Below, one piece after another: positions 4,675 through 31,484 of a DNA stretch of 64,000 nucleotides. Within the stretch, counting starts at the first letter, position 1, and each line of letters opens with the position of its first letter. Origin of the DNA: Schmidtea nova. Lineage: Eukaryota. A model generated the notes under the pieces. That model made no database searches, was not told the DNA's origin, and worked only from the letters and a program-made list of their open reading frames with translations. The position numbers and the translations under genes were made by a program. The stretch lies in contig CM097883.1 of assembly GCA_044892505.1 (NCBI GenBank), forward strand, positions 106,206,001 to 106,270,000, given 5' to 3'.

Positions 4675-5672
4675 CAATAGAGTTTTTCAAAAATAAAAGA
4701 TTTCTATTTTTAAATATTTGGTTATTTTTAAAGTTTTTTATTGTTTGTTTGTTTTATATAGGAACCTGTGTAAATATTAAATGTTTTTATATAGGGACTA
4801 GTATCATTTTTCAATTCATAATCGTTTGGTATTATNNNNNNNNNNNNNNNNNNNNNNNNNNNNNNNNNNNNNNNNNNNNNNNNNNNNNNNNNNNNNNNNN
4901 NNNNNNNNNNNNNNNNNNNNNNNNNNNNNNNNNNNNNNNNNNNNNNNNNNNNNNNNNNNNNNNNNNNNNNNNNNNNNNNNNNNNNNNNNNNNNNNNNNNN
5001 NNNNNNNNNNNNNNNNNNNNNNNNNNNNNNNNNNNNNNNNNNNNNNNNNNNNNNNNNNNNNNNNNNNNNNNNNNNNNNNNNNNNNNNNNNNNNNNNNNNN
5101 NNNNNNNNNNNNNNNNNNNNNNNNNNNNNNNNNNNNNNNNNNNNNNNNNNNNNNNNNNNNNNNNNNNNNNNNNNNNNNNNNNNNNNNNNNNNNNNNNNNN
5201 NNNNNNNNNNNNNNNNNNNNNNNNNNNNNNNNNNNNNNNNNNNNNNNNNNNNNNNNNNNNNNNNNNNNNNNNNNNNNNNNNNNNNNNNNNNNNNNNNNNN
5301 NNTAGATTGACAACGGAGATCCTTATGATTTTATACGTTAGGGTGATCTCGCCAACATAAAAACATTCCCCCGCTGACACCCATGATGCATCCCTAACTA
5401 CTCCTCATGTTGGTACTGTGTCAACGTTGTGAAATGACAAGGCAGGTGAGCAACCTTACGGCTACTATTCCCTTGTTTATTCACGGGTCCACCACTACCG
5501 ATAGAAGGTGTTTGTGGATTTCTTTCGGTCCCACTTATGCTCTTGTCTATTGTCCTAGGGTAATTTAATCTTAGCGCATCTGCTGTTCTTCATGAATCCG
5601 GGTTTTAGTTATATTCAATTCTCAGACATTCCACAAACAAACAAGACAAGTCAACTCATTCATTTTATACAT

Positions 5673-6254
5673 TTATTTATAGTTTAACAATACAGAGGGC
5701 CTAATTACATTTAGTAGTTCTTGCTCGGAGAGACCACTGAGCAAGTCTACCTCTATTCCTACGCGATCTGCATATGCGCGTCTCTCCCTGCGTTTTTTCG
5801 CTCCCAAGCGATTCCTTCGTTTGGTCCTCTGCGATCCTCGTGGTATAGTTGTGGTCATCTCGGTTGCCGTGGTTACGGTTATCTCTTTGTCGGTTTGCGT
5901 ACTCGTCGTCGCTGATGTCGAAGTTAACCATTTGTTGAAGGTACTCGTCCTAATCACTGGACGCAATTGCTCAACGATGAAATCTTGGGTCGACACCTTT
6001 TAATAATTGGCCAACTCTAACTTCAGGGCTGCGACCTCCCTTGCTTGTTCATCGATCGTTCGCTCCGCTCTGTATCGGGCCTGTAAGATGGCTTTAACCC
6101 TCTCAGGATTAAACCACGTTGCCTTAATCCGCTGGTGCTCCTCGTTCAGTTGTCTCAAGCGACTCTCGAGGACACGAGATCGTGCTCTATGTTCGCGTGC
6201 CTCTTGCTTGTAATTTCGAGTGGGATTTTCGTCCATATCTGAGTAATGTATCAT
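5673..6254 (-). pseudogene. LTR-encoded 193-aa coiled-coil/Arg-rich ORF, broken in this LTR by a TTA>TAA nonsense change at 6001
   Basis: The 84-aa and 107-aa ORFs here join into the intact 193-aa ORF at 31876-32457. Base 6001 is T here versus A at 32204. Confidence 0.9.
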
Positions 6255-6431
6255 TAACCAGGGTATTTATGCCTTGTTTGGTTTCTCAGTCCCTATTTTA
6301 TTGTTAAACAACTGCACCCTCATCCTTACTCATTCCACATACATCCAAAACCAAAACAAAACCCTTTTAAATGGATACATATATTTTTGATTTACAACAG
6401 ATGTTCGTACATTGGGGTGTCGTCCTCGTGA

Positions 6432-7067
6432 TCAATTGTATGGTCGTAACTCTTGATCGGCCGGGTTCTCGTCTCGGCGAATCCCTGTTTCATGGTATAG
6501 TTCGGGGGCCGGATTCCAACTCAGTTTGTTTTGATAAATGAACACCTCCCAGAGGCGAAGGTCTTTGGGCTCGGGGTGTTGATCCACGGAAATACTGCCT
6601 GGGGCGTTCGGGTAAACGAAGACTTCCCCAGTGTCACCACACCGAGGCCTGTCTAGCAGCAAATACCCGAGTTGACCGAATGCCTGCCCGGTCATCATTC
6701 CGGTGCTTAGTACCCAGCGGGGTTGTTGGGTTTCATCTACAAATTGATAGAACCATCTTTCGCATCCATCTTTGGTGGGGTTCGGAGAGGGCGTCCAATC
6801 GACATCGCCTTCCCACCTCAGCTGTAGTTGGAATGCACAGGCGGGAATACTTGCCGCTATGCTCATATGGGTCCTCGTCCATCGACGCAGGTGTCTACGT
6901 GCGGAGTTGAAAATTTGTCGTGGGGCCTCCTTCTCTCCTTGGATCTCAGTAGGTAATTTTTGTGTGATGACGGAGCGGATGCGCCGTTTCCTCCGTAGAA
7001 TGTACTCCTCTAATTTGACGGTTAGGGGTCCTACCGGCTCCTTCATGAGATATTCTGTTTTCCTCAT
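6432..7067 (-). CDS. LTR-encoded 211-aa protein of unknown function (3' LTR copy)
   Basis: ATG-started ORF, same protein as 32635-33270. Basic patch RRKRR; TTTCAG acceptor 6 nt before the ATG. Confidence 0.6.
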   Translation of the reverse strand: MRKTEYLMKEPVGPLTVKLEEYILRRKRRIRSVITQKLPTEIQGEKEAPRQIFNSARRHLRRWTRTHMSIAASIPACAFQLQLRWEGDVDWTPSPNPTKDGCERWFYQFVDETQQPRWVLSTGMMTGQAFGQLGYLLLDRPRCGDTGEVFVYPNAPGSISVDQHPEPKDLRLWEVFIYQNKLSWNPAPELYHETGIRRDENPADQELRPYN

Positions 7068-8732
7068 GTTGCTCTGAAACGGAATTTTAGGTTAACTGAC
7101 AGACTCTATCATCGACCATCGATTTTATGTCGATCAACCTACTTGGTTTATCGTCTATTAGCCGTAGGCCTTAGTAGCTCGCATATAATTTACTAGACCG
7201 TTGGTCGCGATGTTCATGTAGGTTGTGACTTTACCTAGGTGAGTTGATTCACTCCGCAATTTCAGACGGTTTTAGCTACGCTAATTTTGGCTTCTTATTT
7301 ACAATCAATTTATGTTACATTTAATTTTTCACCGATCATTTCCATTCACTCAACATAGTTCATTTACAGATCATCATCAGCAACTATCAAGGTTCTCGTC
7401 ACGGGGAAAATTTAGTCATCCCTTAGTCAACTGCTTTGTTGAGGGACCCACTAATTTTATCTACTATCGGGTCTGACTTTTCATGCCCTTAGTGGATTAT
7501 ATGTATATATCTGGCAGCTCATTCGATTCACGACTACCCCTTGGTGTTAATGTCTTTCGGCCGCGATGTTACGTTTTGCCTATCTCGATGCTCATCGACT
7601 TTTGATGTACCAGCACTCCTTGAAGGTATACCCCCTCATCAAGGTACTTCATGCATATATCTTCCCTTGCGAAATGAACTTTACCTTGAGTTGATTTATG
7701 GTCATTAACTGTCACCCGATACCCCGTCATCGTACTGTATAGCATTTATACTAGGCTATCGCTACCTTGATTTAGTTCATGATCATTAGGTCTTACTCGA
7801 TACCCTATGTGCATCCCCCTTTTCCCCTCATCAAGTATTTAGTAAACTTATGGTCCCGCCGCATCAGCACCTCACCACCGATAAGGTGTGTTGCGCTGAG
7901 AGGCCAAAGAATCCGTCAGGCTGCTAGGCCTCCGGAAAACCTTATTGATTTTATCATGATTATGATTATTATGAGGGTTTAAATAATTAACAATAAAACT
8001 CAACCATACTTGTATTTGGCTTCCAATCGATTTTACAATGTCTTCCGTAAGAGTGACTGTTGTACTGATTTACCTTCAGTAAAAATGACCTCCTATTTCT
8101 CTATTTTTACTGATTTTACTTCAGTATTTATACTCAACCGGTGTTGTTGGTCAGCCAATCAGCATCGAGTATGTGTGTATGTTTGCTTCATTATTTTGTG
8201 TTGCCGGCTTTTTGGTGCCTAACTCAACTCAATGATTTATTTGGTTAATCATGCGGTAAGTTTATTTTTGTATGATTTAATTTTTATTTGATTTTGTTTT
8301 AGCTCTTCGGTGACATCCGCCCACGCGCTGTCATATTCCGATTTTATTTGCTTCGCATGAGTGAGTTATGAAGATTTTTGTTGTTTTTATTAATACTCTA
8401 TTTCTTTTAGATGTTGCCGCCTATTTTATTACACTTTGGTGTTGGTAATTTATTTTGTTGTTATTCTGTTGTAAATTTATTTTATTGATTGTATATTATT
8501 TTTAGATGCTGCTCGATTTGGCTGGCCCAACATCACTCGGGGTCCCCTAAAATTGCGTCCCGCAATTACATGCATATACCTACATCAACATACATAAAAA
8601 GTTCGTGACAGAACTTACATGCCAAACCACATAAGGTGGTAGCTTTTATACACATTTTTACACATACACATTGTCATTGTCATGTTTATATTGTTACACA
8701 GTTCAATGTTTCTGGCTCATAGGGGTCGATTT

Positions 8733-9257
8733 TCAGGTCCTTTCACTGGATGACTGCATTTCGTATCGGGCTTGGATTTGTCGCAGATGACTTCTCATTC
8801 TTTGTTGGGTTTTGGCTTCTCTTTTGGCGCATCTACACATTATCGTTTGTTGTTGTTTGAGGCTTCTGATTCGGTACAGGGTATACGTGATCACTATGAT
8901 CAAGATGATTGTCAATATGGTCATTGTGACTATTCCCACGATGATCCATCTGTTTCGGATTTCGTATTCGATTTGGGTTTGACCTTTGATTGGCTTTAGG
9001 TGATCTTGAAATGTTCTATGGATTTCTCTGATCTTCTCGATTTGATTGAGTAGGGTTTGTAAGGGTTTGCGATGATCATGACTGATTCGCATTTGTCGGA
9101 TTAATTGTTTCAAGTCTTCTCTGACTTCGTTTAGTTGTTTTTCGATCTCCTGGGATATCTCATTTGACAGGGTTCTTTGGATTTCGGTTGTCGTACAGTT
9201 CGTGATTGCTGCTGTTAACATAATAGTTAGGATTGGTAGGGTTTTGAGCCAGTTCAT
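8733..9257 (-). CDS. Accessory 174-aa type I membrane protein (signal peptide, coiled-coil ectodomain, TM, basic tail)
   Basis: Hydrophobic N-terminus MNWLKTLPILTIMLTAAIT, heptad region, TM WIIVGIVTMTILTIILIIVITYTLY, then R/K-rich tail with CRC. Confidence 0.75.
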   Translation of the reverse strand: MNWLKTLPILTIMLTAAITNCTTTEIQRTLSNEISQEIEKQLNEVREDLKQLIRQMRISHDHRKPLQTLLNQIEKIREIHRTFQDHLKPIKGQTQIEYEIRNRWIIVGIVTMTILTIILIIVITYTLYRIRSLKQQQTIMCRCAKREAKTQQRMRSHLRQIQARYEMQSSSERT

Positions 9258-9330: not shown

Positions 9331-10503
9331 TTACACATCCGTCTCCTCTGGTTCATGGAACCCTTCATCTTGGAGTTCCATTGGTGGTGGTGGTATAAAC
9401 GGTAACCACACCACTCTACTTCTCCACATTGCAATTTCGTCTTGATACGTTCGAGAGATTTGTATCTCTTCATCTAACAGATACTCCATATAGTCTGATT
9501 GTTCGCTCAGAGTTTCAATTTGTCTTTCCATTTCTTCCACTTTTCTCTTCAGGGCTTCTGTTTCTGTTGGTTCGGTTTCTATTTCTGGGGTTTCTTTCTC
9601 TGCTTTCAGGGTTATTATTTGTTGTTTCAGCTCCTCGTTTTCTTTCGTCAAATTCGTTATGTTTTCCTCGTAAGCTCGGTTTGATTCCGCATGTCTTTCT
9701 TTCACTGCTTTCAACTCCATTTTCTTTTGGGTCACTACTCCTTGATAGCCATTTACATCTCTTTCCAGGCTTTCTTTTTCCCTGATCAACTTTTGTCTTT
9801 CTGCTTCCTCTTTCTGTCTAATGCCTCGCATTTCTCCGTTTATTATCTGTATTTGCCATTGCGTTTTCTTTAGTTCCTTTGCTTGTTCTCGAATAAATCG
9901 CTGTCGTTTTCGACTCCATTCTTTGTTGGTCTGTTCTTGTCGCTTTCTCTGTTCCAATTCCTCTTTCAATTCGTCTATCTCTTGATACAATTTCCAATCT
10001 TCGCTGTGTGCTGTCCTTCTGATTATCTCTTTGGCTTCTTTATACACTCGTTTCGACTCCATCTTCCAATGTCTCGCTTGAGCCTTGATTGCTAGTATTT
10101 TTACCTCCATCTTTTCCTCTTGTTTCTCCCTCTCTTCTCTTCGCGTTTTCATCATATTTTTATAATGTTCTGCTTGTTTCCTCATCAACTGATAGGTCTC
10201 TTCTATCTTCTGTCGACTTCGTGAATTCGTTCCTTTTAGCTTCTCTATTTGTGTTGTCAGTTGTACTATCTCTTTATTTACTTCCTCGAGTTCTAGTTGA
10301 TATAACTCCATTCGTCTTTTGCATTTTAGTTTCTCGTAGAAATTGTTTGTCATCACTTCGTGTAATTCTCTGGTTCTTTGTTCTACTTCCACTTTACATC
10401 TCTTTTCGATTTCTCTTTCGATTTCTCTTTCTATTGCTTCTTGTTCGTTTGACATCTCGTTTCTCGTTTCATCTTCGATTACATGTTCATTTGCGTTTTC
10501 CAT
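9331..10503 (-). CDS. Accessory 390-aa long coiled-coil protein, unknown function
   Basis: E/K/R/Q-rich heptads almost throughout. C-terminus WLPFIPPPP...ETDV. Confidence 0.75.
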   Translation of the reverse strand: MENANEHVIEDETRNEMSNEQEAIEREIEREIEKRCKVEVEQRTRELHEVMTNNFYEKLKCKRRMELYQLELEEVNKEIVQLTTQIEKLKGTNSRSRQKIEETYQLMRKQAEHYKNMMKTRREEREKQEEKMEVKILAIKAQARHWKMESKRVYKEAKEIIRRTAHSEDWKLYQEIDELKEELEQRKRQEQTNKEWSRKRQRFIREQAKELKKTQWQIQIINGEMRGIRQKEEAERQKLIREKESLERDVNGYQGVVTQKKMELKAVKERHAESNRAYEENITNLTKENEELKQQIITLKAEKETPEIETEPTETEALKRKVEEMERQIETLSEQSDYMEYLLDEEIQISRTYQDEIAMWRSRVVWLPFIPPPPMELQDEGFHEPEETDV

Positions 10504-10592: not shown

Positions 10593-12005
10593 CTACTCCA
10601 ACCATCCTTTCGTCGACTTCGTGTTCATCGCTGCTGTACTTGTTTTCTTTTCGATTTCCAACTCTACGTATAGGTTGTCGTCGTACAACATTTCCCACAT
10701 TTTTTGGTGTGGTATGAATTTTGGTTCTCCTGTTGCTAGTGAACATTCTGTGGTTGGTCTTTTGTAAGCTTCATGCTTACCATCAATTTTGAATATCCTC
10801 ACGATCGTTTCTTTCGAGTTTTTGACCCTCATTACCGCCTTTGTCTCTAGCGGCCATTCTAATATGTCGTCGTAACCCCCTTTACACAACGCAAAGAATA
10901 ATGACACATGCGTTTCCTTTCCTGATCCATCTTCATTTGGATAAATTCTCATCCGGACTTTGTATCCGTTTTTCCACAGATAGAATGGTGGACTTGTTAC
11001 TGACACTTGACTTCCTGCTTTTGCTGCTGCGAACCTTTCGTTGAAGTTCTTGATTTTCCATACATATGGTGCAACAGGTAAACTCTCAATATCCTCTGCA
11101 TCTCGTATCCACATTTGATGTCGCACGTTTACTTCTTTTACCAATGTCTCTATGACTTTGATTTTCTCCATCATTTTCTCTCTGGTGAGCTCGAATTGCT
11201 CTCTCGTTTCCAGTAATAACTCCGTCATTATCCTCTGAGATTCAATTTCTTTCCTCAGTTTCTGTATGGTTTGTTCCATTCCGTTCAAATTTTCTGTTAA
11301 CATCTCTGCGTGTTGTACCGTCTCTGTTTCTAAATGCTCTTTCATTTCTTTGCTCGTTTTCTTTACTACACATCCTTGTTTGCTCCATACGCACTTTCTT
11401 GGCCTTGCTTCGCACTGCTCCCAATGTTCTTTCAACATCACCTCTTCTCTGGCTCCACAATTACTTGGACAAATTCCTCTGAATTTTCCGCACACTTTCT
11501 CTTCTGCTACGTTGAGATGCTCTGTTACAATTACTTCTCTCGTCTCTCTTTGTTCGCAGTATTGACACTCTATTATCTCTGCCTTGCACTCATCCTTGTG
11601 ATTTTTCGACTGCTTGATGGTTATCGTCTGTTGACACTTTTCACATATCGCTTTCTTGTTTTCGCATTTCTCCAGATGTTGTCTTAGCTCGATTATTTGT
11701 CCTTTCCATTCACATGGTTGGTTTATACATTCTGTTTTTATCTTCCAGATCTCCTTTTGTATTGCTTTGTCTGGTTTCGTCTCGTTGATTAGTAGTTTAT
11801 CGCCACACTCGGGACACTTTCTTGTCTCACTTTCACTGATTATTTGCAATATACACTTGGTGCACATCCTGCATCCACATTCCGTTTGCCTCGGTTTTAA
11901 CAGTAGATTTTTACACTTTACACACGTCACATTTACTCCCCATTGTCGATTCTCTCTTCTTAGAATCTCGATCGTTTGGTAATCTGCTTCGCTTTCTGCT
12001 CTCAT
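10593..12005 (-). CDS. Full-length intronless TRAF-family protein (RING, TRAF zinc fingers, coiled coil, MATH/TRAF-C), 470 aa
   Basis: RING CVKC..KPRQTECGCRMCTKC..CPEC; TRAF fingers C..PCEWKG..L..HLEKC, CPSNCG..EHWEQC, CVWSKQGC..EHL; MATH YVWKI.NF, SPPFY...GYKVRMRIYPN.DG.GK.THVSLFF..CKG.YDDILEWP, G.PKFI, DDNLYV. Confidence 0.92.
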   Translation of the reverse strand: MRAESEADYQTIEILRRENRQWGVNVTCVKCKNLLLKPRQTECGCRMCTKCILQIISESETRKCPECGDKLLINETKPDKAIQKEIWKIKTECINQPCEWKGQIIELRQHLEKCENKKAICEKCQQTITIKQSKNHKDECKAEIIECQYCEQRETREVIVTEHLNVAEEKVCGKFRGICPSNCGAREEVMLKEHWEQCEARPRKCVWSKQGCVVKKTSKEMKEHLETETVQHAEMLTENLNGMEQTIQKLRKEIESQRIMTELLLETREQFELTREKMMEKIKVIETLVKEVNVRHQMWIRDAEDIESLPVAPYVWKIKNFNERFAAAKAGSQVSVTSPPFYLWKNGYKVRMRIYPNEDGSGKETHVSLFFALCKGGYDDILEWPLETKAVMRVKNSKETIVRIFKIDGKHEAYKRPTTECSLATGEPKFIPHQKMWEMLYDDNLYVELEIEKKTSTAAMNTKSTKGWLE

Positions 12006-12095
12006 TCTACAACAATATTTACATCAATTTCCCCATATTTTTGATTTTTTCTGGTTCTTTATTTACACGTATTTACACAATTTTCCGCTTATTCA

Positions 12096-12446
12096 CTATA
12101 CATCCTCAGTTGAATCTGGCTCTGGATACACGTCTATCTCATTTACAATCCAGCTCGTCCAACTATCCGGTATCTCTTCCTCTTCATGTCTCGTTAATCG
12201 GTCAATTTCCTCTGCTTGCCAATTGTTCACTTCATTCAATGTTCGGTTCTCGTTCTGTAATTCGTTTATCTGTATTTGTTGGATCTCGATTTTGTTCATT
12301 GCTTCGAAATTACAGTTATAACTTTCGGTTAATAATTGCGTTTTGGCCGTCAACTGGCTCTGTAATTCGTTTATTGTTCTGGCTAGCAGGTCACATTGCA
12401 CTTTCCATCTTGTCATCATCGACATCTCTGTGGTTTCTTGATTCAT
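12096..12446 (-). CDS. Accessory 116-aa coiled-coil protein with acidic, Trp-containing tail
   Basis: ATG ORF with repeated INELQ heptads, placed co-directionally between other accessory genes. TAG acceptor 7 nt before the ATG. Confidence 0.65.
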   Translation of the reverse strand: MNQETTEMSMMTRWKVQCDLLARTINELQSQLTAKTQLLTESYNCNFEAMNKIEIQQIQINELQNENRTLNEVNNWQAEEIDRLTRHEEEEIPDSWTSWIVNEIDVYPEPDSTEDV

Positions 12447-12569: not shown

Positions 12570-13832
12570 CTATACAATCACTACTGGTTTTTCTTCGTAC
12601 AGTTCCTCGTCCTCGATCTGTACCCACATCTCTTCATGTTTTGATCGTCTTTTCAGCTCTTCTCGTACTGCTTTTGGTAGTTTTATGTTGTAATTCGTGA
12701 CCTTAACTTCTGGCCATTTTACTGCTATGGTCTTATTTCTCATGCCATATCTCCAACATACTATCATGATCGTTATCAGCGGTATACACGCTATGAATAC
12801 TCCCATGCTGATTAATCCCATTATTGTTTTCCCGATGCTCATTTTCGGAGCTTCACTTTGGTTTATCATCACGCCATATTGACCTTTCCATTCCGCTTCC
12901 CATTGTTCATATTGTTGTTGTCTCTGTCTGACTTCTTCGATCACTTTCTCTGGTTCCCATTTTTCTTGTTGATTTGGTATTGTTTCTTCCTTCTCGTTTT
13001 GTTCTCTCTTCTGACTCAATTCTCGGAATTCTAACTTTCTGATTCTCCTCGTTATCGTCGTGTTCCTTGGCGTGTAATAGGTTTCGCACCTTTCTTGTTG
13101 ATTTCCTTGTGTATCCACTTCTTCAATTGCACACACTTCGTATTCTGCGTTTGTTTTCAACTTCCTCATTTCTACCTCGATTATTTCTCCTTTGTCATCT
13201 GCGGTCTTTTGACAACTTCGTGGAGACTTTCTCATACTGTTTGGCATTAATGTCCAACAGATTTCTAGGACCTTTTTATGGATCTTCCATATTATCAACG
13301 TTATTGATTCCGGTTCGTTTTCTATTGTCGTCCCTTCTGTTGTTACCTGTTGAACTCCTTGACTGTTGGTTGTCGTGGTTTTTCTTGACTTTCTTTTCCT
13401 CTGTCGACTTCCTTCCATTTCGATCGTTCTTGTTCCGTTAATTTGCTCTGGCGTCTTGTACAGTTTGCACTCCCGGCTTCTTTGTATTATTTCCTTTATT
13501 CTTCGGATTACGCAAATTTCATATGCTTGTCCGACTTCGAATCCATTTAGTTGAAACGGGATTCCCCGTTCTCTCGTTCTGCATTGCGGTATTACGTTGT
13601 TGGTCGATATTCCGATGTATTTTCTCCAACACATCCCAATTGTTCTCCGACCAATGTTTTTTATCTCCACTGTTACTACTTCATTCGCAATCGTTTCTTG
13701 ATCTTGTTTCTTTCTTTTTGGGAACTCAATTATCTCCTTTGCTTGGAACACTTTACACTCGCTTGTTCCTGGTCTGTTTCCGTTTGCTGCTTTTTCCATG
13801 AGGCATAGTTCACATGTTTTCTCTGTTTCCAT
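12570..13832 (-). CDS. FN3-like repeat membrane protein (420 aa as annotated); in frame with the polyprotein beyond one TGA
   Basis: Repeats with pattern (I/C)W...L...YE(I/V)C...C..Y.T, TM IMGLISMGVFIACIPLITIMIVCW, cytoplasmic tail ..LYEEKPVVIV. No stop between 13937 and 13833 in the polyprotein frame. Confidence 0.72.
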   Translation of the reverse strand: METEKTCELCLMEKAANGNRPGTSECKVFQAKEIIEFPKRKKQDQETIANEVVTVEIKNIGRRTIGMCWRKYIGISTNNVIPQCRTRERGIPFQLNGFEVGQAYEICVIRRIKEIIQRSRECKLYKTPEQINGTRTIEMEGSRQRKRKSRKTTTTNSQGVQQVTTEGTTIENEPESITLIIWKIHKKVLEICWTLMPNSMRKSPRSCQKTADDKGEIIEVEMRKLKTNAEYEVCAIEEVDTQGNQQERCETYYTPRNTTITRRIRKLEFRELSQKREQNEKEETIPNQQEKWEPEKVIEEVRQRQQQYEQWEAEWKGQYGVMINQSEAPKMSIGKTIMGLISMGVFIACIPLITIMIVCWRYGMRNKTIAVKWPEVKVTNYNIKLPKAVREELKRRSKHEEMWVQIEDEELYEEKPVVIV

Positions 13833-13937: not shown

Positions 13938-16900
13938 TCATTGGTCTTGGATGTTTACTAACGTCATCACGCTGATATCTATGTCCTCCATGATTCTCTT
14001 AATGAGAATTAATATTAATGCTACACATATCAATTCTGGTTGGAATGTTAATTTGCCCGCTGAATTTTTGGTTATTCTTTCTTTCTCCGTTCGGTTTCCG
14101 ATTCCTTCTTCTGCTTCAGATTGATTCTTCCCTTTCTCCGATTCCACTTCTGTTCTTCTCGTTGTCTCTTCGCTTCTTTTCCCAATCCATTTCTGTATCT
14201 TCAGCGCTTCTGTTGCTTTATATAATTGACATGCAGTTACTTGAGGTGCTTTTGGTTCTCCTCTCTGCTTTATTGCGCATATTATGTATGACTTTTCTTT
14301 CTCCAATCCTTTGATTTGGATGACGTCTCGCTTCAGATCTGACAATATACACTTCAGCGTGTCGTTTTTCTTCAGGTTTTCTTTCCAGCATATTCTTTCG
14401 TATACTTCGTTTCCTCTGATTATTTCCAGCGTGACGTATTGTTTCTTGGCTTCTCCTTGTCCGATGATTGTTATCAATATCGCAATACACAACATTTCTG
14501 GTCTCAAAAGTAGACTTCCTGTTCGTTTTCCATAATTCGTACGTTCGTCTTTCGTTCCTCTGTTTTCTCGTTCTTCTGCTTCTCCTTTCTTGTCGTTTCT
14601 TGTTGGCTTTGGTTCTTCCTGTCTTTCTTTTTCATTATCCTCTGTTCTTTTGTTGTCATTGTCTTCGTTGTTCTTTTCGTTGTTACTTTTGTCGTCGAAA
14701 TCTCTGTAACCACCCCCTGGTCCTTTGAAAATGTCGTCCTCGACATTAATTTCTTTAATCAATCTTTCATACGCTTGAACCGCGAGTGTGCTAGACTCGA
14801 ATTCCCGTATTTCCATATCTTTGGATGGTTCTATGTCTTTTAGTCTACTTTGCTTTATCGTTTCTTTGGCATCTGTCCATTCATTCACATATTTTCTGAA
14901 CAAGTCTTTCCATCTTCCCGTTCGTTCGGGTTCCTTTGGATTGTTCGTGAATTTCAAATCTCTTCTCTTCAGGAATTCTTCAACTATCTCTGGCTTTTTG
15001 TGTCTTAATAACGCGCTTCTGATACACCAATTCTGATTCTGTTCCATATGGTCATTGATCTTGAATGCCGGTTCCTTGGTGATCGGATTCACCCATGTTA
15101 GTAATGCTCTTGTCTTCTCTATGTCGTGTATCATTACTGTTAGACTGAAGTTCTTTACGTTATTTGCCAGGTATTCGATATCCTCTTGTTTATTGATGGA
15201 CTTTATGAACTTGATCATCTCGAAGTTGTTCCACTGTATTGCGATATCTATGATGGAATTGTTCTTTCCATTTTTCCCTTCGATTTTGGCTCCTGCTTCG
15301 TATAACTCGTGTAGCACTTTCAATTTCGTCTTCTTTCTTGCTGCGATTATCATGATTGTGTCTCCGTTATCATCAACCATATTCATATCTGCTTCGCACT
15401 TTACCATTGCTTTTGTTATTTCTAGCGCTTCGTTTTCTTTCTTTCGACGTAATGCCCAGTGTATCGGCAATCTCCCATCCTTTGATAATAGGAATGTTAC
15501 TGGCATTTGATTTTTGATCGTTTCTATGTCACTCTCGTTATAATCTCCTTGTGCGTATCTGTGCACTTTCTCTGTAATTGCTCCTAGTATCTCCAACGAG
15601 TTTTTATTCTCCTTGAATTCTGATAGTCTTTCCTGCGCTTTTGCTACGATTGCGTCTAGTCTCTCTTGATTATCAGCTTTTGCATTGAACAACACTGCTT
15701 TGCTTCTTATTCGCGTTTGCATCTGTTTCATTCGTTGGTCTTGATACACTGCTTGTCTGAAGAACTGTCCATATTTCAATGCTTCTATCAGCTCTTTATA
15801 TCGCTTGCTTATTTCTTTGTGCTGCTTTTGGATGTCATAAAAATGTTCGAAGCTCATATCCGGATTCCATTGCTTATCACACCATTTCTTGATTAATCCG
15901 AATAGTTCTTTCTTCCTGTCTTCCAACTTGTATTCTCTTGGGTTTTCGCTAACCCGTAACGTATCTCTCGCTATTAACACTGCAAGTGTTTTTGGATCGT
16001 ATGTTACCTCTAGTAGATGTTTCAGTAACGCATTTTCTCCCCTTATGAACACTTCATTACAATCTATGACCCACGAATCTCCTTCTGGTCGTTTCCACTT
16101 TAGCAATATTCTCCAGGTTTTACTGTTTCTTACTCCGATTGCTTGTTTCATGATCGATCCTCTAGTTAGTTCATCGATTTCCCACGTGGCATTTTCCGTA
16201 ATATACTTTAGTATTCGGTGATTTGCTCTGTCAATTGCATGATTCAAGAATGTTCGTCCTTCTTTATCCTTTGCCATCCAATTCGATCTGGTGTTTCCGA
16301 ATAACTTGATTATTTCATCGTTTCTTCCATGAATTGCTATCATCATTAGTGGAGTGATTCCTTCCCAATTCACTTTGTCAATTTCTCCTCCACCTTCGAG
16401 TATCATCTCTACGATCTCTTTCACCTTCTCGTTTCCCCCGTGCTTGATTGCATTGTGCAACGCGGTATTACCGTCTTTGTCTTGTAGATTCAATGTTTGA
16501 GGGATTTCCTCTAGCAGCGTTCTTGTTATTGGATGTGCTGTTCTATCCTTCGCATACTCCATTACATTTTTTCGAACTTCTGACAGTATATTGAAATCGT
16601 GCCACCATTTCCATTCTGGTATAATTTCTCTGGTTTTCTTTGCCAGTTCTTTGATATCTATTATCTCCCTTCGGTTGTCTTCTAGACTTGTTTGCGGCTT
16701 TTGTTGTACTCGCAACATATTGATTCTCGCCGTCTGTGATCTTGTCATCACCCGTTTCTCTGGTGATAGAGTTGCTGTCTTTGGTATTTTCCTGCATCGA
16801 CATGCATTCACGTATATTGGTCTTACCAATGGATTGTTCACCAATCGTACTCGCACATTATTTTCATTTACTGTTGTGATTTCGTATGGCCCTTTGCCTG

Positions 16901-19900
16901 GTCGTTGGAGTTTCTTGACCGTACCGGGTATTATCTCTGGTGTCTCGACTATCACCCAATCTCCAACTTTTAAATCATGTGCTTTCACATTCTTTTTCTG
17001 ATCATGCAGATCTTTGTAACTCTCTTGATAGAACTTGATGTTTAGTTCCGCCGTTTTCCAGATTTCTTGCATTCTTTCTTTGAACTTTGTAACGTAATCG
17101 TCAACCTCCATGTACTGTGATAATGGTGGTTGGTATTCCAAATCGATCGGTAAGTTGCAATCTCTTCCGTACATTAGTTGGAATGGACTTAGCTTTGTTG
17201 CCGCATGTATTGACATTCTGTATGCCATTAAACACAAGTTGATATATTCGTCCCAGTCGGTTTGATGTTTACTGACGTAATTCGACAACATGCGTATCAA
17301 TGTTCCATTGAACCTTTCTGTTTGACCGTTCGTTTGTGGATGGTATGGGGATGTTCGTAATTTCGCAATTCGGAAGTAATTCGTGACTTCGTCTAATATT
17401 TCACTCATGAAGTTGGTTCCTTGGTCCGTTAGGATTTTCTTGGGTGTTCCGTATCTGCAGCATATCTCTTCTACCAATATTCTCGCGACTGTTTTTGCTT
17501 TTTGATCTGGTATTGCGAATGCTTCTGGGAACTTTGTTAGATAGTCCGTAACTACTAAGATATACTGATTCCCCTTTAAACTTTCTGGCAATGGTCCAAC
17601 TACGTCCATTGCTATCGTTGCCATCGGTTCTGCGGGTATTGGCATTGGTTTTAGTGGTGTTTTCCACTTCGTTCCGACGTTCTTTCTTGTCGCACAGGTT
17701 AAGCAGTTCTTTATCCATTCTTTCACATCATCTTCCATGGTTGGCCAAAAATACTTTTGTCTCAATCTCCCGATTGTCTTTTTCGCTGACATATGTCCGC
17801 CTAATTTTCCGTCATGATATTGAGTCATGATTTCCTTTCGCCTATTCGCAGGTAAGCACATTAATCTTCGTTCTCCATCTTGTATCAATAACCATCCTTT
17901 TTCCATCACATATCGGTGCTGATATTTCTGCATATGTTCGCGTAACGCTTGGTCCTTGCCGAATATTTCTATTTCCCTTTCTTTCAAATACTTGCTGATC
18001 AATCCCAACTCCTCATCTTCGATCTGCTCTTTCCTTAGTTCGCTGAAATCCAGATCTTCCGCTATTAATGCACATATTTTTAGAGTATTCAGGTTCACCA
18101 ATTCTGGGAATGTAAACCTTGACATGCAATCCGCGTTTGCATTTGCTTTTCCTGCTTTAAACTTTATGAATGGCGAGTATTCCTGCAACTGCATCGCCCA
18201 ACGCATCAATCTACTTGATGATTCTTTATGTTGACCTAACCATACTAATGGTTGATGATCCGTTGTGATATATATTTCATGACCCCACAATAGGTATTTG
18301 AAATGCTTGATTGCCAATATTATCGCATAGGCTTCTCTTTCCGTGACTGAGTAATTCCTTTCATGCTTCCTGAACGTTCGACTGTAATATCCAATTACTC
18401 TTTCCTTGCCTTCTTCGTCAAATTGGCCTAGTACTGCTCCTGCTGCATATCCACTTGCATCTGTTGCCAACAGAAATGGCTTCTTAAAATCTGGATGGAC
18501 CAGTATTGGTGCTGTAATCAGCTTATCTCGTAATGTTTCAAATGCTGCTTGCTGTTCTGCTCCCCATACAAACGACACATCTTGTCTTACCAATTCTTGC
18601 ATTGGTTTTGATATTCCTGCATAGTCTTTGATAAACTTTCGATAATATCCACACAATCCCAAAAATTCTTGTATTTGAGTCACTGTCTTTGGTGGTGGAC
18701 ATTCTTTGACCTTTTCGATATTCCTTGGATCTGGTTCTTTTCCTTTTGCTGATACGATGTGACCTAAGAATGTCACTTTCTCTTTTGCCCAATCGCACTT
18801 TGACGGCTTCAGTTTCAGTTTCCACTGTCTCAATTTCACGAACACATTTCTGATGTCTTGTAAGTGATCTTCAAATGTTGCGGAGTAGATCAATAGATCG
18901 TCGATATACACCATGCATTGTTTTATGCCATGTGTTACGAAATTCATGCATCTCTGGAATGATGCTGGCGCGTTTGTTAACCCAAACGGCATTTTCTTGA
19001 ATTGGTACAGATCTCGTCCGATTGTAAATGCTGTCTTCTCTTTATCCTCGTCTTTCATTTTGATCTGCCAATATCCGCTTTTTAAATCCAGTGACGTGAA
19101 ATAAGCTGCTCCTTGTAACGTCAATAACATTTCATTTATGTCTGGCAGTGGGTACGTATCTCTTTTCGTAACTGCGTTCAATCGTCTGTAATCGATACAG
19201 AATCTCTGAGTTCCATCCTTCTTTTTCACCATCACCACTGGGAATTGCCAGGGTGAGCAACTAGGTTCGATGACCTCTGCATCTAACATCTTTTGTACCT
19301 CTTCTTCTGCCACTGCTTTTTGAGCTTCTGCCAGTTTATATGGTCTTAATGCTATTGGCGTTTCGTCCGTCAACGGTATCGTGTGTAAGGTTACGTCACA
19401 TGTTCCTAAATCCAGATCTGATGCTGCGAATATATCTTTATATTCCATCAACAGTTTCTGTAACTGTTCTTTTTGTCGTTCGTCTAACAACACACTGTCG
19501 ATTTTCCATGGTAATTCGTCTTTGCTTTTCTCGTTCTTGTCTGGTATTTCGATTTCGGACATGGGTGTCAATTTACCCAATCTCTCATTCTCGTATATTA
19601 TCTTGTCCTCTTCGTCGAAGTTTACCAGATTAATCGGTATTTCTCCTTCTTGGTTTATCGTGACCAATTCTCTTGCCATTGGTAATTCTTTCTTTGCTTC
19701 GAACTTCTTACTGGGTTCGAATATCATGTCTCCTTTTATTGTTGAATCGATCTTGACATAACACATCATTTCATGTCTCGCTGGCACTACTATTTGTTCC
19801 GCACTTGCTACTTTAACTTTCATTCTGCAGATTTTTCCTGTTCTGTCTTTTAGCTTCATTGCTCCTAGATCAATTACGATTTCCTTGAACAGGTCTGGCA

Positions 19901-22900
19901 TCAGGTCAGTTCCAATAATACATGGTACACTCAGCGATGGTATTACAGCGATGTACGTGTTGATTTCTGCCCCTCGATGCTTAATTTTTACAAACCATCT
20001 TCCGGCTACTTCTACTGTCTCTTGACTGCACGCGATTACATGTACATTCGTCTTCTCAATTTCTCCTTGGTTTTTCTCTGGTATATAGTTGATGTCGATC
20101 GCCGAAATATTCGCGCCTGTATCGATCATAGCTTCGATTTCTCTCCCGTTTATTTCTACGGTTGTTGTTAAGATCGGTCCCATATTTGTGGACATAACTG
20201 CTATCGTGTGCGTGTCTTCCAACGGGTCTACACTTCTGCATCGTTTTACTTTGCATCCTTCTGGAATTATCGGGTATATGCTTGTCATCGGCATCATCTG
20301 CATCATATTCGGCTTCGCTTTGTATATCGGTTCGTTATACATTGACTGAGGTGGAGCGCTGTATCTCCAATTCTCAACTGCACTCTTTTCGGTATACTGT
20401 GGGATCTGGTTTATATTCGCTTGTCCTCCTTGATCGTCATCGTCATCATCATTGCTTGAGTCGTCTTGTGTTCGATATCCCTTCACTCTTTCCCATAATC
20501 CTTTCCTTTCTTTCTTTAATTGTCGCCTTGCTTGCTCGTCTTGCATTATCTTTTTGAATTTCCTTCCGACATCTTCGTTTGTTCCTTTCATTTTTGCAAG
20601 TATCTTCAATAACCTCTTTATTCGATGTATGTCTTTTGAGTGTCCGTGCAACACCATCGTTTTCGCAAGGAATGGTAAAAACCCTACTACCATTTTCCAA
20701 TTCACTTTCTTTTCTCTCTTGTAGATATCGAAGCACGCTAACATTTGCGTTATTATTACTCTGACGATTTGTATTATCAATATAACACCCAGTATTCCAG
20801 CCATCATTTGTCCAAATATCAGGAATCTTCCCCACATTGCCTTCATCATGTTTTCTGTGGCTTTCTTGAAATGTGCCGGTGACAACAACAATTCGTAATT
20901 CGGTCCTTCTCTGTAATTCGTTCCTCCCGTTATCGTTACGATGTTTGACAGTAATGCTTCTCTTCTTGCCGGGAATAATATATTCTGCCTTGCTGCTTCT
21001 AAGTCCTTTGGACTATAGATTCCGTTGTTTGAGACATCTACGTCGCTGAACTGTCTATCCTTTGACAACTGCATTAGTTCGAATTCTCTTGGTGCTAATA
21101 CTTCGGTTCTTCCTGGGAACATAACCCATTTGCCATCTGGCTTCTGATAAAGCGGTCCGTACGCGTTACTACAGTTGAATGGATTTGGTTCAAATCCTGG
21201 TGGATTGATGATTCTCGTCACCGGTTGAACATATCGTACTTTTCCTTTATAATCGATTTCTAATTCATTTGTACATTGTCCAGGTTTCAACTGCGTTGTT
21301 GCTGCTAGCGATGCGTGTGTCTTTTCGCAAATATATACATACATTGCCTCTCCAACCACTCTTCCGAAATGTCCTTCTCTCAGTGGTAATAATGGCATCG
21401 CGCTATCTGGATTCGTAATCGCTACGGCCAACTTTGTCTTCAATATTTCCCGATTCAGTATACAATCGTTATTTATCAGATCATAGTACACTTTTTGCAA
21501 TGAGGCTTGTCCTCTATGGAATAAGAAATCCATTTTATTATTCACATACAAGTGTAGCTTGATATCCATTGTGTCGATCTTGGGTTTCGCATTCGGCACT
21601 TCTTGTTTCGACACGTATATTCCTGGATAATTTGTTTCGTATACTGTTGTACTGCACTTAAGGGTTGCTTTCCCTTTTATGAATCTCATTCCCACATCCT
21701 GATTTGTGGTTATCAACACTGTTGGTGTGGCTCTCATCTCTATTCGTTTTTCTCTATGATCTGGTCTCAATTGTCTTTTGTTCTCTAAAGCTTCTTTGAG
21801 ATGTTTTGCTCTAGCTTTGTCATCATCGTCCTCTTCCTGGAACGTTTTTCCTTGGATTTCGTCGAACTTTGCTCCTTGTAGCAGTTGTAATTGACATTCG
21901 TTCACTTTCGGTTTGTATACCAATGTTGACATTCCCGTTTGACACATACTCCTGTCGATTTTACACATGGATAACGTTTTCATTTCTCCGGTTGTCGGTT
22001 CGAAGAATGCTTCGTAGCTTTTCAGTTCGACTATGTACGTATCCATCACCACTAGGTTGGTTGCAGGTGCTCCGAATATTGGGTAGGTTTCTCCTTGACA
22101 GTACCCTTCTCCTCCCGTAATTCGTCCTGCTACATAATACGTCTGCTGTAACATCATTCCTGGTTTTCCTTTTATCTTGATTTTATCTCTCGTTGTTACT
22201 TCTCCATGTTTAAATAATGCTTCGCAGTCTTCCCCTTGCAACACGATTGGTTCTCTTTCTGTTCCTGGCATGACAATTGCTGAATAATGTCCTCTCCCAC
22301 AATAGAATGCGAATCTCGTCTTCTGTACCTTGCATTCATTCACCATTGTCTTTATTAGTTCTGCCTCTTGATACACGTGATACCATTGTTCTTTTTTAAT
22401 CTCTTTCAATTCTACTGGAGTTGCGTCTTTGCATTGCTCCGTACCTCTCAATGAGTACTTTTCTCCCAATTTCATTTGATCACAATCAAATACTTCGAAC
22501 GTTGTTACACCTTCTGTGCTTAACAACCATACTAGCATCATCATGATTATCGAGTTTAGATTCAACGTCGATCTTCCGTTTCCTTGCATCGTTTGTCTAT
22601 TCTCCATTTCTCTCAATACTCCCTCGAGTTTCTTTCTCATCACGTTAGAACCTTCTTTTGTCTGATTCTCTTTTATGAACTTTTCCCATCCTCCTTTTCT
22701 GAGGATATATGGTTCAATTTCTTTCTCGATAATCATCGCCGTATTCTTGATATGTCTTCCCATCGGACTTGACTTCGGACTTCCTCGGCTTAGCGTTAGC
22801 AAATTGTATATCGTATACGAGATTGCTACTAGATATTTGCTGTCCGTTTCTGCTCCGTTCAGTAACCTTTTTATCAACATCGTGGTTCCTTGCCAATCTA

Positions 22901-25900
22901 GATGATTCGATTTTGTTTTTGCCTTTATCAATTCCGGCATAATCGGTGCTATTGCATTGTGTAGCATTTTTGCCTTTGTACTGGGTTCGTTTATCCGCCA
23001 CAAATTCTTTAATTCTGGGTCAATTATCGCTAACACATCCATTATCGTTTTGGTGAGCCATTCTTCTCCTTGACAAACTTGATTCTCCTCTTTTCCTCTG
23101 ATTTCTGCGATTTTGTCTAGTTTCTTCAAGCAAATCTCCCATTGCTCTTGTCTCCTTTCTTCTCTTGTCTTTGGAATTGTTGTTGCTGGATCTATCTTTG
23201 GTCTCCCTCTTGGTCGTTTTTCCATTCCAGTTCCGGTTTCTACAAATCTCGCTGCTCTTCCGGTTTCTTCTGTAACATCTCTTCCTTCGTTCGCTCGCTG
23301 TTCTAACCATCTTTCCATTTCTTGAGTAAACTGTGGTTGTTCTTGTTCGTCTTCCGAATCGTTTACCATTTCTATGACTACCTCCTGTTCCACTCCTTGA
23401 TCGTCGATTTCTGCTGGTGACGTTATTGGCATCTCTATTATTCTGTCGAAGATATTTGCCGTTGGTTTTTGAGTTAACTTCGTTAGTTCTTCTATCGCCT
23501 CATCACTATCTGTTAGTATCTCATCGACGTCATACGCTTCTGGCGGTGTTCTCTCTCTCGTTTTTATTGGTGTTGTCCTTGCTTGTCCTGAACTTGTTCC
23601 TGGGGTCATTGTTGACTTCATCGGACTTGGTGTACTCATGCTTCCTTTCGCTTTCTTTTCCTCTTTAAACTTCAGTGGTTGACCCACTATTTGTGCCACT
23701 GTTAGCGTATTCATTAGATCCAATTGCACTGGTGTCAGCCAGATTTCCAAATTATTATCCAACGATCGTCCTTGATGTTGCAGGTGGAATGGTAGTTCAT
23801 ACATCAGTTTCTCTTTAACACTCTTCACTTTTTCGGTTAGCATCACCCAAAATTCTTCTTTTCTCTGATTCGGATACATTATCCTCAAATGTATTTTCTG
23901 TGGCGTTTCCTCCGCGAATTCTCGGTTTCTCCACTTTTTTATTACATCGTCTAGTTGCTCTGGACACCACTCGTTAACTCTCTTGTATTCTGCTATCGCT
24001 TTAGCTACTTTTCTCAAGTTCGTTATGTCTTCTCCATTTGAGATTATGAATTGTGCTAAGCCTTTTATTGTTTGTCTTTTTCCCCGAGTGTTTCCTCTCA
24101 ACAGCTCGATCAATTCACTTGTTTTCTGTTTCTCCAATTCTGCCCATATTACTGCAGTTTCTGGTCCGTCTAAGTCCGTTGGTAGTAACCTCCTTGTTAC
24201 CATACATATCCGTTTCGTATTCAGTTCATATCTGTCTTCTCCTTCCGGATCTTCTTCATATACGCCTCTTTTCACTTTCCAACATTTCTCTTTGTTATCC
24301 CATTGCTTCTCTACTGGCGTCAATCGTCGTCTGTTAAGATCCAATTCTCCTAATATTGTCTCCCATTCTGGCTTCATCTGCCAGTTCCGATAGATTTCTA
24401 CTATCTGCCTCAGCTTACGCATAACGTCCTCTTGTCGTTTCTTTTTCCTTTCCTCATCTCTTGGTGTTGCTCTTGGCACGTCATCCATTCTGATGACATG
24501 TATTGTCTGATAATTATCCCATATGCCGATTTTGTACGCTCGTCTCTCATCACGTTCGTTCAGTAGATGTTCTTTGTATTTTATCGCTATGTCATCCTCA
24601 AATTCGTCTTCCCGTTCTCGTTGCAATATCGTCTCATTGATGACCTCTACTATTTCTCCCACTTTACTATCTGGTATTACTTCAATTTGTCTTGTCTCTT
24701 CGTTCGGTAATCTCACAGTAATCATTAGATCTGATACCTCTCCTCTTTTAAACATTTCTTTTCCCATCTTTGCAATTAGCTTGTCGGTTTTGAAATTTGA
24801 ATGTCTCGTTTGACTTGTATCTCGTATGTTTTCGATACACTGTTTCAAATTCTCATACTCGCTTTTCGTCAATTCCTTTCGATGTTTCTTGATTTGTTGA
24901 ATGATCTGTTCTATCATCGTATTCAAATTCTCTGCCAAGATTCTTTCCTTTGCCTTCATCCACTGAGGTTTTATTCTCATCTCATAACACGTATTTGCTT
25001 CTCTGACGATTCCTTGTAGGTTCTCTTTCTTTTTGGTGTTGCATATAGCTAGCGTTGTTATTTCTCCTGGCCATATGCCTGTGTCTATCATATGCGTTCC
25101 TTTTCTCACCAATCCGTTTTCCGAATATATGAATTTGTCTTTGTACGAGCTTCCCAATCTGTCCTCAACCCATCTGTAAATTCCATCTGTCATTGGGTTC
25201 CTTATCCAGATTCTTGGTGAACACTCGTTTATCCATATTTGTATTACGTATTCGTTCAGTGGTTCTTTCAATAACTTCTCTATGAATTCTTGTATTACCC
25301 TCACTTCTCTTTCTTGTAACCACTCTTTATACTTCATCTGCCATACTGCTCGTATAAACTTTCTATATCGTTTCCCGTCGATAAACTCCTCGTTATGGAT
25401 TACTTCCAACGCGTTATCCATCAGCTTCTGAATTTCCTCTTCCTTTACTGACATCGTTTCTATCGTCTCGACTACTTCCATCTTTTTATCCTCGTTTTCC
25501 GGTTCCTTTAGCATGTCTCCTGCCAGACTGCTGACTTCGCTGTCGTCTTCTTCATCCGACAACTCTTGTCTTGGGTGTCTCAGCATCCCAATATGCGCGG
25601 TTGGTCTCGCTTCGTTTTTGGTAACTTCTTGTATTAGTTCATTCTCGGTTCCCGTTATTTCAGCTTTTCCCATTCTCTTTTCCAACTCGTCTATTTCTTC
25701 CAGCCGTCTTCGTCTTATTTTTCCTTTAAATATTCGACTGATCCGAGTTTGATGTTTCACTGGTGGGGGAATTTTCTCCGGTTCCACCTCTCTAATGATC
25801 ATCACGTTTATTTTCGTCTCCGTTACTCCCATATCTTCCCATATATCCGTCGTCTTCAACTTTACTTCTGGCAAATCCTCTGTTTGTAGGAATGCTTCTC

Positions 25901-28816: not shown

Positions 28817-29144
28817 CACCCTTCACTTACTCACTTTACTTTACTACTCCTCTGTATGCATACTTTCACCTCATTAGGCCACATAATCAGCTTTACTCGC
28901 ATTTATCAATACCTAGGTGCGCACCTTCAACTCTCTCGTTATTAATTCGGTTTCTTTCAACCCTTATTCCTCATTATTCGCTATTCATTTTCACTATTCA
29001 TCATTTATCCTCATTATCACTTATTCATTTCCATTATCGCTTGTTGATCTTCACTATCCGGATAGTTTTATACGTAATTTAGTCCTCATCTGCCTCACTT
29101 CGTCGTCTTTCTCGTGGGCTTTTACTCAATATTTTATTTCGAAC

Positions 29145-29780
29145 GAGAACTATGCTCACCGTTGAGAACTATGCTCACTGACGAGAACTATGCTCACTGA
29201 CGAGAACTATGCTCACTGACGAGAACTATGCTCACTGACGAGAACTATGCTCACCGACGAGAACTCTGCTCGCTGACGAGAACTATGCTCACTGACGAGA
29301 ACTATGCTCACTGACGAGAACTATGCTCACTGACGAGAACTATGCTCACTGACGAGAACTATGCTCACTGACGAGAACTATGCTCACTGACGAGAACTAT
29401 GCTCACTGACGAGAACTATGCTCACTGGCAAAACATGGTTGTTATGAGGATTCTGCTTACTGATGGAAACTCTTTGCTCCGGGGACTATGTTCCCCGATG
29501 AGAACTATGCTCACTGATGGTGACTACAGGAATTATGTTTCCTGATGAGAACTATGCTCACTACGATGACTATGTTTATTGATGAGAACTACGCTCACTG
29601 ATGAGGACTATGTTCGCTGGTCTTGTATTTATTAATGAGAACTCTGCTCACTACGGGATTTATATTTACGGACGAGAACTATGCTCACTATGATGTTGTG
29701 TTTTATGACGAGACCTACGCTCACTAGGATGTTATTTTTATGACGAGACCTATGCTCACTATGAGACCTATGCTCACGAA
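29145..29780. repeat. 19-bp tandem repeat (GAGAACTATGCTCACTGAC): 15 contiguous units (29145-29429), then degenerate spaced units
   Basis: Counted directly; unit starts at 29145+19n through 29411. Confidence 0.97.
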
Positions 29781-30478: not shown

Positions 30479-30937
30479 CTACAAGTACACTGTTATTTTC
30501 TCGGATACGGGAAGGTTGCACATAGGACATCGTTCATTTATTTTACATTCATTACAGAATCGGAAATGCCCACATGGCAACAACATTATCTGTATCTTAT
30601 TCATTTCACAGATATAACACATCAGATATTGTCTCGTATGTTCTGTTGTTATTCTTATCCACTCATCGTGTTTTGTTGTTAACTGTTGTTCTAGCCTGTG
30701 GCACTCGATGTTCATCTCAGGGTTGTTTAATCTTTCTCTATACCATTGATATCGTGTTGCTGTATCCACTGTGTTCTTATTCTCACTTAAGCTCATCATC
30801 CTTTCAGCTCTTTCTGTGTTGTTTGTCGGTTCGTGATATTCTCCTACCTCGAGTCTTTTTAACTTTCTCGTTATTGTCTCCACTGTCTCGTGGTTTGTTT
30901 CGAAAAACGTTTGCATTTCTTTTATTTTGTTCTCCAT
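30479..30937 (-). CDS. Accessory 152-aa coiled-coil protein with C-terminal IAP/XIAP-type RING finger (no BIR)
   Basis: CYICEMNKIQIMLLPCGHFRFCNEC..NERCPMCNLPVSEKITVYL-stop matches the terminal C3HC4 RING of IAP/MDM2-like ligases. Confidence 0.85.
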   Translation of the reverse strand: MENKIKEMQTFFETNHETVETITRKLKRLEVGEYHEPTNNTERAERMMSLSENKNTVDTATRYQWYRERLNNPEMNIECHRLEQQLTTKHDEWIRITTEHTRQYLMCYICEMNKIQIMLLPCGHFRFCNECKINERCPMCNLPVSEKITVYL

Positions 30938-31466: not shown

Positions 31467-31484
31467 ATCCCGGCTGAGCCCCCA
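31467..31484 (-). promoter_or_regulatory. Primer-binding site complementary to tRNA-Pro 3' end
   Basis: Minus strand TGGGGGCTCAGCCGGGAT versus the classical tRNA-Pro PBS TGGGGGCTCGTCCGGGAT (16/18); lies just inside the 5' LTR. Confidence 0.9.

Follow-up and report, generated by a model that had tools for sequence, protein, structure and literature searches.

A complete TRAF gene within a Burro-type retrotransposon

On the minus strand of the window, the whole 64,000-nucleotide stretch of Schmidtea nova DNA that we analysed, a 470-codon frame runs from ATG to stop without interruption (10593..12005). The ORF list, Pfam, PDB sequence matches, an AlphaFold model and a fold search identify it as a full-length TRAF accessory ORF of 470 aa. 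Its parts follow one another on that strand as a RING with eight Cys ligands (residues 28-67; 11805..11924), TRAF-type zinc fingers (about residues 93-225; 11331..11729), a predicted coiled-coil helix (residues 229-307; 11085..11321) and a MATH, or TRAF-C, domain (residues 314-451; 10653..11066), the helix being taken from the AlphaFold model and the other three from Pfam and alignment. The Pfam matches to MATH_2 (E 2.8e-26, residues 314-451) and TRAF-mep_MATH (E 6.6e-25) lie above the cut-off, and those to zf-TRAF (E 7.7e-5) and TRAF3_RING (E 2.2e-4, residues 28-67) lie below it. A PDB sequence search matched the ORF to the solved TRAF1, 5, 2 and 3 domains at E 1e-25 to 5e-24 and to the RING-finger structures of TRAF6, 5 and 2 at E 8e-13 to 4e-8, TRAF6 being the best. 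The AlphaFold model, built on 33 sequences and with a mean pLDDT of 86.5, places a single long helix (229-307) ahead of the MATH sandwich, and its top fold matches in the PDB are the TRAF domains of TRAF1, 3, 5 and 2. A word-based homolog search with the ORF returned only four distant TRAFs; the best named full-length relatives come from Dendrocoelum lacteum and Dugesia japonica.

The ORF sits inside an LTR element of 29.4 kb whose gag, BCL-2-like part, env, pol and ankyrin repeats mark it as one of the Burro type known from planarians, so that ORF, Pfam, model and flanking LTRs agree with the preliminary description of a complete TRAF, with RING, zinc fingers, coiled coil and MATH in order, inside a retrotransposon. 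The 5′ LTR, about 3245 nt long, spans 31491..34735 (minus strand; seen to 34717) and contains ORFs of 193 and 211 aa, and the 3′ LTR spans 5288..8532 (minus strand; seen from 5303); the outer end of each falls in an N stretch and its position is inferred. TG...CA ends and 4-bp target duplications are present in five of five sibling copies. With 26,203 bases between them, the two LTRs of the window copy differ at 7 of 3212 compared positions, indicating that the insertion is young. A primer-binding-site-like stretch (31467..31484, minus strand) starts with TGG 6 nt inward of the 5′ LTR, and we take this candidate site to be of the tRNA-Pro type. Between copies, the LTRs are far more variable: those of the siblings L131-L138 are only 76-84% like the window LTRs, with an unalignable middle, at about 94% likeness of the interiors, and each sibling’s own LTR pair is 99.8-100% identical. 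This combination of near identity within copies and divergence between them suggests many young, independently active lineages. A further copy (L139/L140) has a 1462-nt LTR, deleted in both ends.

Most of the interior is taken up by a 4512-aa polyprotein (13938..27476, minus strand; ORF list and Pfam) in the order gag, CCHC knuckles, env-like fusion domain, protease, RT, RNase H, integrase and ankyrin repeats. The env-like part, between gag and protease, is a fusion domain of the Monjiviricetes type (residues 1913-2253). A structure model predicts a BCL-2-like fold within the polyprotein (22650..23159, minus strand): the top 27 VIA rows all belong to the BCL-2 family (best Z 12.3, rmsd 2.8, 137 aligned), the best Foldseek E is only 0.006, and the Pfam search of the polyprotein gave no match to this stretch. 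Directly downstream lies a 420-aa ORF (12570..13832, minus strand), which in the sibling copies L071 and L072 is the C-terminal part of the polyprotein. Since the sibling frames continue through it, the window polyprotein is broken just ahead of this ORF.

The remaining minus-strand ORFs form an accessory set around the TRAF. Ahead of it lies a 116-aa ORF (12096..12446; dN/dS 0.055), and behind it a 390-aa coiled-coil-like ORF (9331..10503), which is next after the TRAF in all five families described below and gave no match in Pfam and only generic coiled-coil matches in an atlas search. A 174-aa ORF (8733..9257) has a hydrophobic N terminus and a likely membrane helix. Upstream of the polyprotein, a 152-aa ORF (30479..30937) ends in a RING (Pfam zf-C3HC4_3), presumably IAP-like, for which the atlas search returned generic RING matches. 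No BIR was matched by Pfam in the polyprotein or the upstream RING ORFs of three families, although a divergent BIR could escape Pfam; with no BIR found in the upstream RING ORF, the parallel to a TRAF-cIAP pair is incomplete. The leader also contains a 19-nt tandem repeat (29086..29484).

The assignment to Burro rests on element anatomy as described in PMC6431247 (section 7), of which the length of about 30 kb with multi-kb LTRs, the single polyprotein layout, the BCL-2-like stretch and the MATH_TRAF_C cargo are all present. With the giant Ty3/gypsy elements Burro and GYPSM1, the window element shares the gag with CCHC knuckles, the env between gag and pol, the ankyrin repeats, the tandem repeat and the accessory ORFs, and differs in that Pfam found no BIR in it (PMC6431247). 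Schmidtea mediterranea Burro1 has its MATH inside the polyprotein, whereas the window family has a whole TRAF as an ORF of its own behind pol (PMC6431247). In a Burro-like element of Dugesia tigrina, mentioned there as “not shown”, the polyprotein lacks MATH and MATH_TRAF_C is on a separate accessory ORF; that ORF is placed upstream and only its MATH is named, while the window TRAF is downstream and full length. MATH/TRAF cargo in Burro, including as an accessory ORF, is thus already published (PMC6431247). Our literature search, which had subscription papers and supplements outside its scope, found no report of a full-length, RING-bearing Burro TRAF or of its selection; the figures or supplements of Grohme 2018 and of Lee et al. 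2026 (Dev Cell) may already show the full-length TRAF. To the known Burro cargo, the present analysis adds a whole RING-bearing TRAF, measured purifying selection, a putative single capture and a candidate expression route.

Copies, families and selection

We scored 90 TRAF candidates, drawn from 3427 first-pass candidates, and all 90 are full length at 94-100% identity (85 stop-free, 5 with a stop); the family to which the window copy belongs (family A) therefore has at least 90 full-length copies. All 30 fetched copies are colinear with the element across 4.4 kb, and by hand comparison an integrase match lies at the expected distance in 78 of the 90, one of them about 2 kb off. The remaining 12 and five further copies also lie within element DNA (17 of 17); 12 of these 17 have large internal deletions and have lost part of pol yet retain the TRAF, and two are fragments. 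Among the 47 family A loci whose flanks were read (5 of them twice), none has a TRAF outside an element, and no TRAF-specific insertion hallmarks were seen at the family A loci examined. Among 40 of 117 copies chosen by integrase rank, the TRAF is intact in 26 and broken or partial in 8, and 6 gave no match across the 2.8 kb where it would be expected.

Four further families (B, D, E and F) carry a TRAF in the same place, behind pol and ahead of the 390-aa ORF. These proteins share 46-52% identity with the window protein and 43-77% with one another. Family B accounts for 86 matches at ≥92%, and families D, E and F for about 72, 12 and 8 of 93 rows when sorted by match length; for these three, flanks were read at 11 loci, plus further stretches. 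In total, about 270 matches to element-borne TRAFs were counted, which is a lower bound. Family C is different, with a MATH domain alone, inside the polyprotein and without RING, fingers or coiled coil, a MATH in that place being also the layout of published Burro1.

Several copies are rearranged. L201, L202 and L206 share an internal deletion (window 14886/19530) that removed the stretch from RT to integrase and kept env and TRAF; they are likely a non-autonomous lineage moved in trans, and similar deletions occur in families E and F (L164, L160). L073, L207 and L208 break within window positions 11102-11116, directly ahead of MATH, and in L073 the polyprotein is fused in frame to MATH; because a MATH search was used to select these three, selection bias may account for part of the clustering of their breakpoints. 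The family B polyprotein has a stop-to-stop frame of 5140 codons, which is also the figure given for D. tigrina ORF1 (PMC6431247), possibly by chance, since the TRAF ORF of that element is placed upstream.

The element TRAF is under purifying selection. Because a first set of copies had been picked on TRAF similarity (dN/dS 0.084), a second was drawn by integrase rank; its 33 copies with ≥300 codons (528 pairs) gave dS 0.22, dN 0.023 and dN/dS 0.103, with 0.10 for shared variants and 0.23 for singletons. The TRAF is thus neither confined to the window copy nor neutral. Across 20 of these copies, dN/dS was 0.018 for RT, 0.031 for RNase H, 0.013 for integrase (biased low, since the copies were picked by integrase) and 0.096 for the TRAF, within which the RING stood at 0.047 and MATH at 0.085. 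The RING is the best-conserved part of the TRAF (0.047-0.057 overall), with eight of eight ligands fixed in 33 of 33 copies. The neighbouring accessory ORFs are conserved too (dN/dS 0.055-0.20), suggesting that the TRAF is one of a maintained accessory set.

Host origin and the two motif deviations

To place the element TRAFs, we built a 35-row full-length tree under a mixture model, from which duplicates of families A and B, the partial or long host rows L066, L069, L076 and L077 and most database hits were left out. The element TRAFs of the five families group together as a single clade (100/99), whose sister is the database protein P0036 (100/97), and both lie within a 23-row clade (99/97) with host single-exon, Dendrocoelum, Dugesia and other TRAFs; these placements are to be read with the element rows failing the composition test and having long stems, and with P0036 being a long branch. 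A 44-row LG tree, in which two of the families are represented, gives the same picture (96/96). Family C groups with the element clade in a careful 39-row MATH tree (97/85), having been left unplaced by a quick 73-row one. The two-exon host TRAFs form a clade of their own (100/100). P0036 itself is a 452-aa TRAF on a 2753-base contig, with a best match of 37% among 93 scored places of the window’s genome; it could belong to a Burro element in a different flatworm or be a host gene of the donor lineage.

Planarian host TRAFs (Dugesia japonica TRAF2-like A, Dendrocoelum TRAF-2/-4/-5 and Smed-TRAF-2A/B) share with the element TRAF the domain order, the Cys-for-His RING, YPxGDG in MATH and a supported clade, at 29-35% identity. 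They differ in setting: the DNA around host TRAF genes is low in GC and has no Burro flanks, whereas the element TRAF has the element’s base composition and a remodelled peptide loop. Its coding strand, with A 0.41 and T 0.18, matches that of pol, and T in three host TRAFs is 0.27-0.29. Transposons are unmentioned in the planarian host TRAF paper. Many copies, a dN/dS of 0.10 and nesting within the planarian TRAF clade thus uphold the earlier proposal of a host-derived TRAF kept by the element, and the simplest reading of the trees is that a single old capture, from a planarian host TRAF into the element, likely took place. The missing introns, from which a captured mRNA had been deduced, had to be dropped as proof: eight host TRAFs have RING and MATH in one frame, and since such single-frame genes are common, intronlessness says little about the route. 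LTR elements usually acquire genes by way of RNA.

The preliminary description had further pointed to two motif deviations, CGCRMC in the RING and YPNEDG in MATH, and had argued from them for a decoy or dominant-negative adaptor. Both motifs are indeed present; neither, however, carries that argument, which the comparison of copies and a survey of host RINGs led us to reject. All eight zinc ligands of the RING align, with Cys at a site that is His in most animal TRAFs, and this fourth position is Cys throughout, in 33 of 33 copies of family A as well as across the five families. CGCRxC also occurs in 12 of the 13 host TRAF RINGs that were read, all but that of a TRAF4-like gene (labelled by eye), and the Cys state occurs in 18 of 97 pattern-matching database proteins, including three Dendrocoelum TRAFs and one crinoid TRAF. 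The Cys is therefore inherited and no change made by the element; being the normal state in the host, it deviates only when set beside TRAFs of the vertebrate type. A RING with Cys for His could presumably still bind zinc, and the RING dN/dS is as low as 0.047. As for YPNEDG, its Glu (residue 358) is one of two residues private to the window copy, with Gly there in 29 of 29 and 33 of 33 other copies (overlapping sets), and two public runs of one study, their type unspecified and perhaps themselves the source, have the other letter at position 10933 in essentially all of their depth. Since LTR divergence predicts about 1.5 private changes per 1.4 kb, this Glu is likely a neutral change that arose after insertion.

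Candidate expression route and role

Lying behind a frame of 5000 codons, the TRAF would need an RNA of its own. A splice-acceptor-like TTGTAG (12007..12012, minus strand), recognised by sequence comparison and putatively used, ends 1 nt ahead of the TRAF ATG. TTGTAG stands 1-3 nt ahead of the TRAF ATG in all five families, which share ancestry and so do not amount to five independent observations, and the 14 bases upstream of the TRAF are identical in 30 of 33 family A copies. As a background, any YAG is equally close at 136 of the element’s 576 ATGs (24%). We infer from this conservation that the TRAF may be expressed by cis- or trans-splicing onto the conserved acceptor. A spliced TRAF RNA copied back into the genome was sought among the 17 odd copies and L170, and none turned up: by alignment coordinates, their junctions do not lie at the acceptor. 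A look-up of public runs that contain the TRAF listed no RNA run. The two public runs cover the TRAF ORF as contigs and have no acceptor joint among the best loose ends listed, which is uninformative either way. A YAG also stands 1-7 nt ahead of the ATG in six of seven accessory ORFs (8733-12446, 30479-30937 and 32635-33270), the exception being the 193-aa LTR ORF.

Which role such a protein might play is suggested by its conserved parts, by its fellow cargo and by related systems. We favour, at a probability of roughly 55% and arguing from sequence comparison, that the whole TRAF is a fixed Burro accessory gene, captured once from a planarian host, that acts as an active pro-survival adaptor or ubiquitin-ligase scaffold and so helps cells expressing the element to survive. 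The protein would be made from a subgenomic RNA, spliced at the conserved AG right before the ATG, and would trimerise via coiled coil and MATH as TRAFs do, keeping a zinc-bound RING. Since its peptide-binding loop has drifted, its partners are probably different from, or fewer than, those of host TRAFs. Together with the BCL-2-like domain and the upstream RING protein, it could damp stress-induced cell death, to the benefit of any copy whose inheritance depends on a stem or germ cell staying alive.

An active pro-survival scaffold is favoured because of the conserved RING, the BCL-2-like and RING co-cargo, the effect of host TRAF knockdown and that of B-IAP. Loss of host TRAFs raises cell death in S. 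mediterranea (PMC7586133). Burro elements carry apoptosis and ubiquitin domains, and one cargo, the Burro1 B-IAP of Lee et al. 2026, is reported to aid regeneration and, at second hand, to shield stem cells against apoptosis (excerpt of PMC13465017). B-IAP is likewise a host-derived cell-death regulator in a Burro element, and the window element also has a RING ORF upstream of gag; what sets B-IAP apart is a BIR alongside its RING and a function backed by experiment (same excerpt), the element TRAF being a different cargo with a predicted role. Other observations count against the pro-survival reading. The one viral counterpart considered, ORF111L of the iridovirus ISKNV, is also a TRAF-like gene of a selfish replicon, there a large fish DNA virus, but it binds TRADD, promotes caspase-8 apoptosis and is thus pro-apoptotic (PMC3352826). 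Sequence does not tell in which direction the effect would go, towards survival, immune damping or death. Against an active ligase count the RING Pfam matches, both below the cut-off, the non-basic residue that follows the last Cys of the RING and the general weakness of TRAF2/3-type RINGs as ligases on their own.

The peptide pocket bears on both the favoured reading and its nearest competitor. The serine-rich loop of TRAF2/3 forms part of the receptor-peptide pocket. The window TRAF has KHEAY where TRAF1/3-like rows have SSSF or SASF, and the Ser-Ser-Ser-Phe loop of TRAF2/3-like proteins is absent in all five element families, between which the loop varies; in host planarian TRAFs, too, it is only partly kept. 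A loop remodelled in this way fits loss of receptor binding as well as a change of partners. It is therefore possible, if at present doubtful, that the folded protein is a competitive inhibitor that joins host TRAF trimers or takes up E2 or other partners and thereby blocks an innate or stress signal. Such an inhibitor would be equally compatible with purifying selection, and planarian TRAFs have been tied to immune responses (PMC7958881). Family C, which keeps MATH alone in its polyprotein, has a RING-less layout. Classic dominant-negative TRAFs lack the RING, and in mammals it is this layout that acts dominant-negatively. In the window family, by contrast, the RING is neither missing nor degenerate but the most conserved part, and the two motifs put forward earlier give an inhibitor no support.

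Less probable still is that the TRAF serves the element directly, by scaffolding or ubiquitinating element proteins during processing, assembly or budding or by degrading a host restriction factor, with survival signalling unaffected. Selection among copies is most easily explained by such direct service, the TRAF travels with the 390-aa ORF in all five families, MATH is built into the family C polyprotein, and the TRAF outlasts the loss of part of pol in the 12 deleted copies. Yet family C manages without RING, fingers and coiled coil, and the other cargo, BCL-2-like and RING, points to cell-death control.

That the flow ran the other way, with elements seeding the host TRAF expansion as had been suggested, is very improbable: element-borne TRAFs are numerous (at least about 270 matches), several host TRAFs are single-exon and a sister relation of the element clade with the two-exon host cluster was not rejected (p-AU 0.18), but none of 17 host rows, a sample of the best-scoring host genes only, nests within the element clade of the 39-row MATH tree, the host single-exon genes have close Dendrocoelum and Dugesia relatives, the large host cluster sits for the most part at C2:405-455 Mb, in tandem arrays with RING and MATH in separate frames, and 47 of 47 family A loci with flanks read sit in element DNA. 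This dense host TRAF/MATH cluster has many of its members in 4-5 kb tandem arrays.

Returning to the pro-survival adaptor, it is tempting to speculate that Burro carries its own multi-part survival pathway (TRAF, RING ligase and BCL-2-like domain), spliced from hundreds of copies and relied upon by the host under stress or in regeneration. The TRAF would then join B-IAP as a second cargo of mutualistic effect, and some of the planarian TRAF expansion published from transcriptomes would be carried by elements; we regard this wider picture as tentative and rather unlikely in full. The element TRAF is in any case a second Burro cargo that lends itself to a direct test by RNAi in a group of model animals, and counts of planarian TRAF/MATH transcripts (121 domains in an excerpt of PMC6109357) may mix host genes and element copies.

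Beyond the outer end of the 3′ LTR, a Polinton-like, protein-primed DNA polymerase B ORF (Pfam DNA_pol_B_2; 107-664 and 1843-4674, one of them a related fragment) adjoins the element. Similar polB DNA lies beside the copies L131 and L207, and Polinton-like ORFs, recognised by eye, lie beside the family B copy L127; this repeated adjacency could reflect a target preference or mere abundance. Elsewhere in the window are a WD40 ORF (37824-38711; Pfam), a 353-aa ORF that is transposase-like by eye and has no Pfam match (47450-48511), and a degenerate fragment labelled by eye as a nuclear-receptor-like zinc finger (50954-51451).
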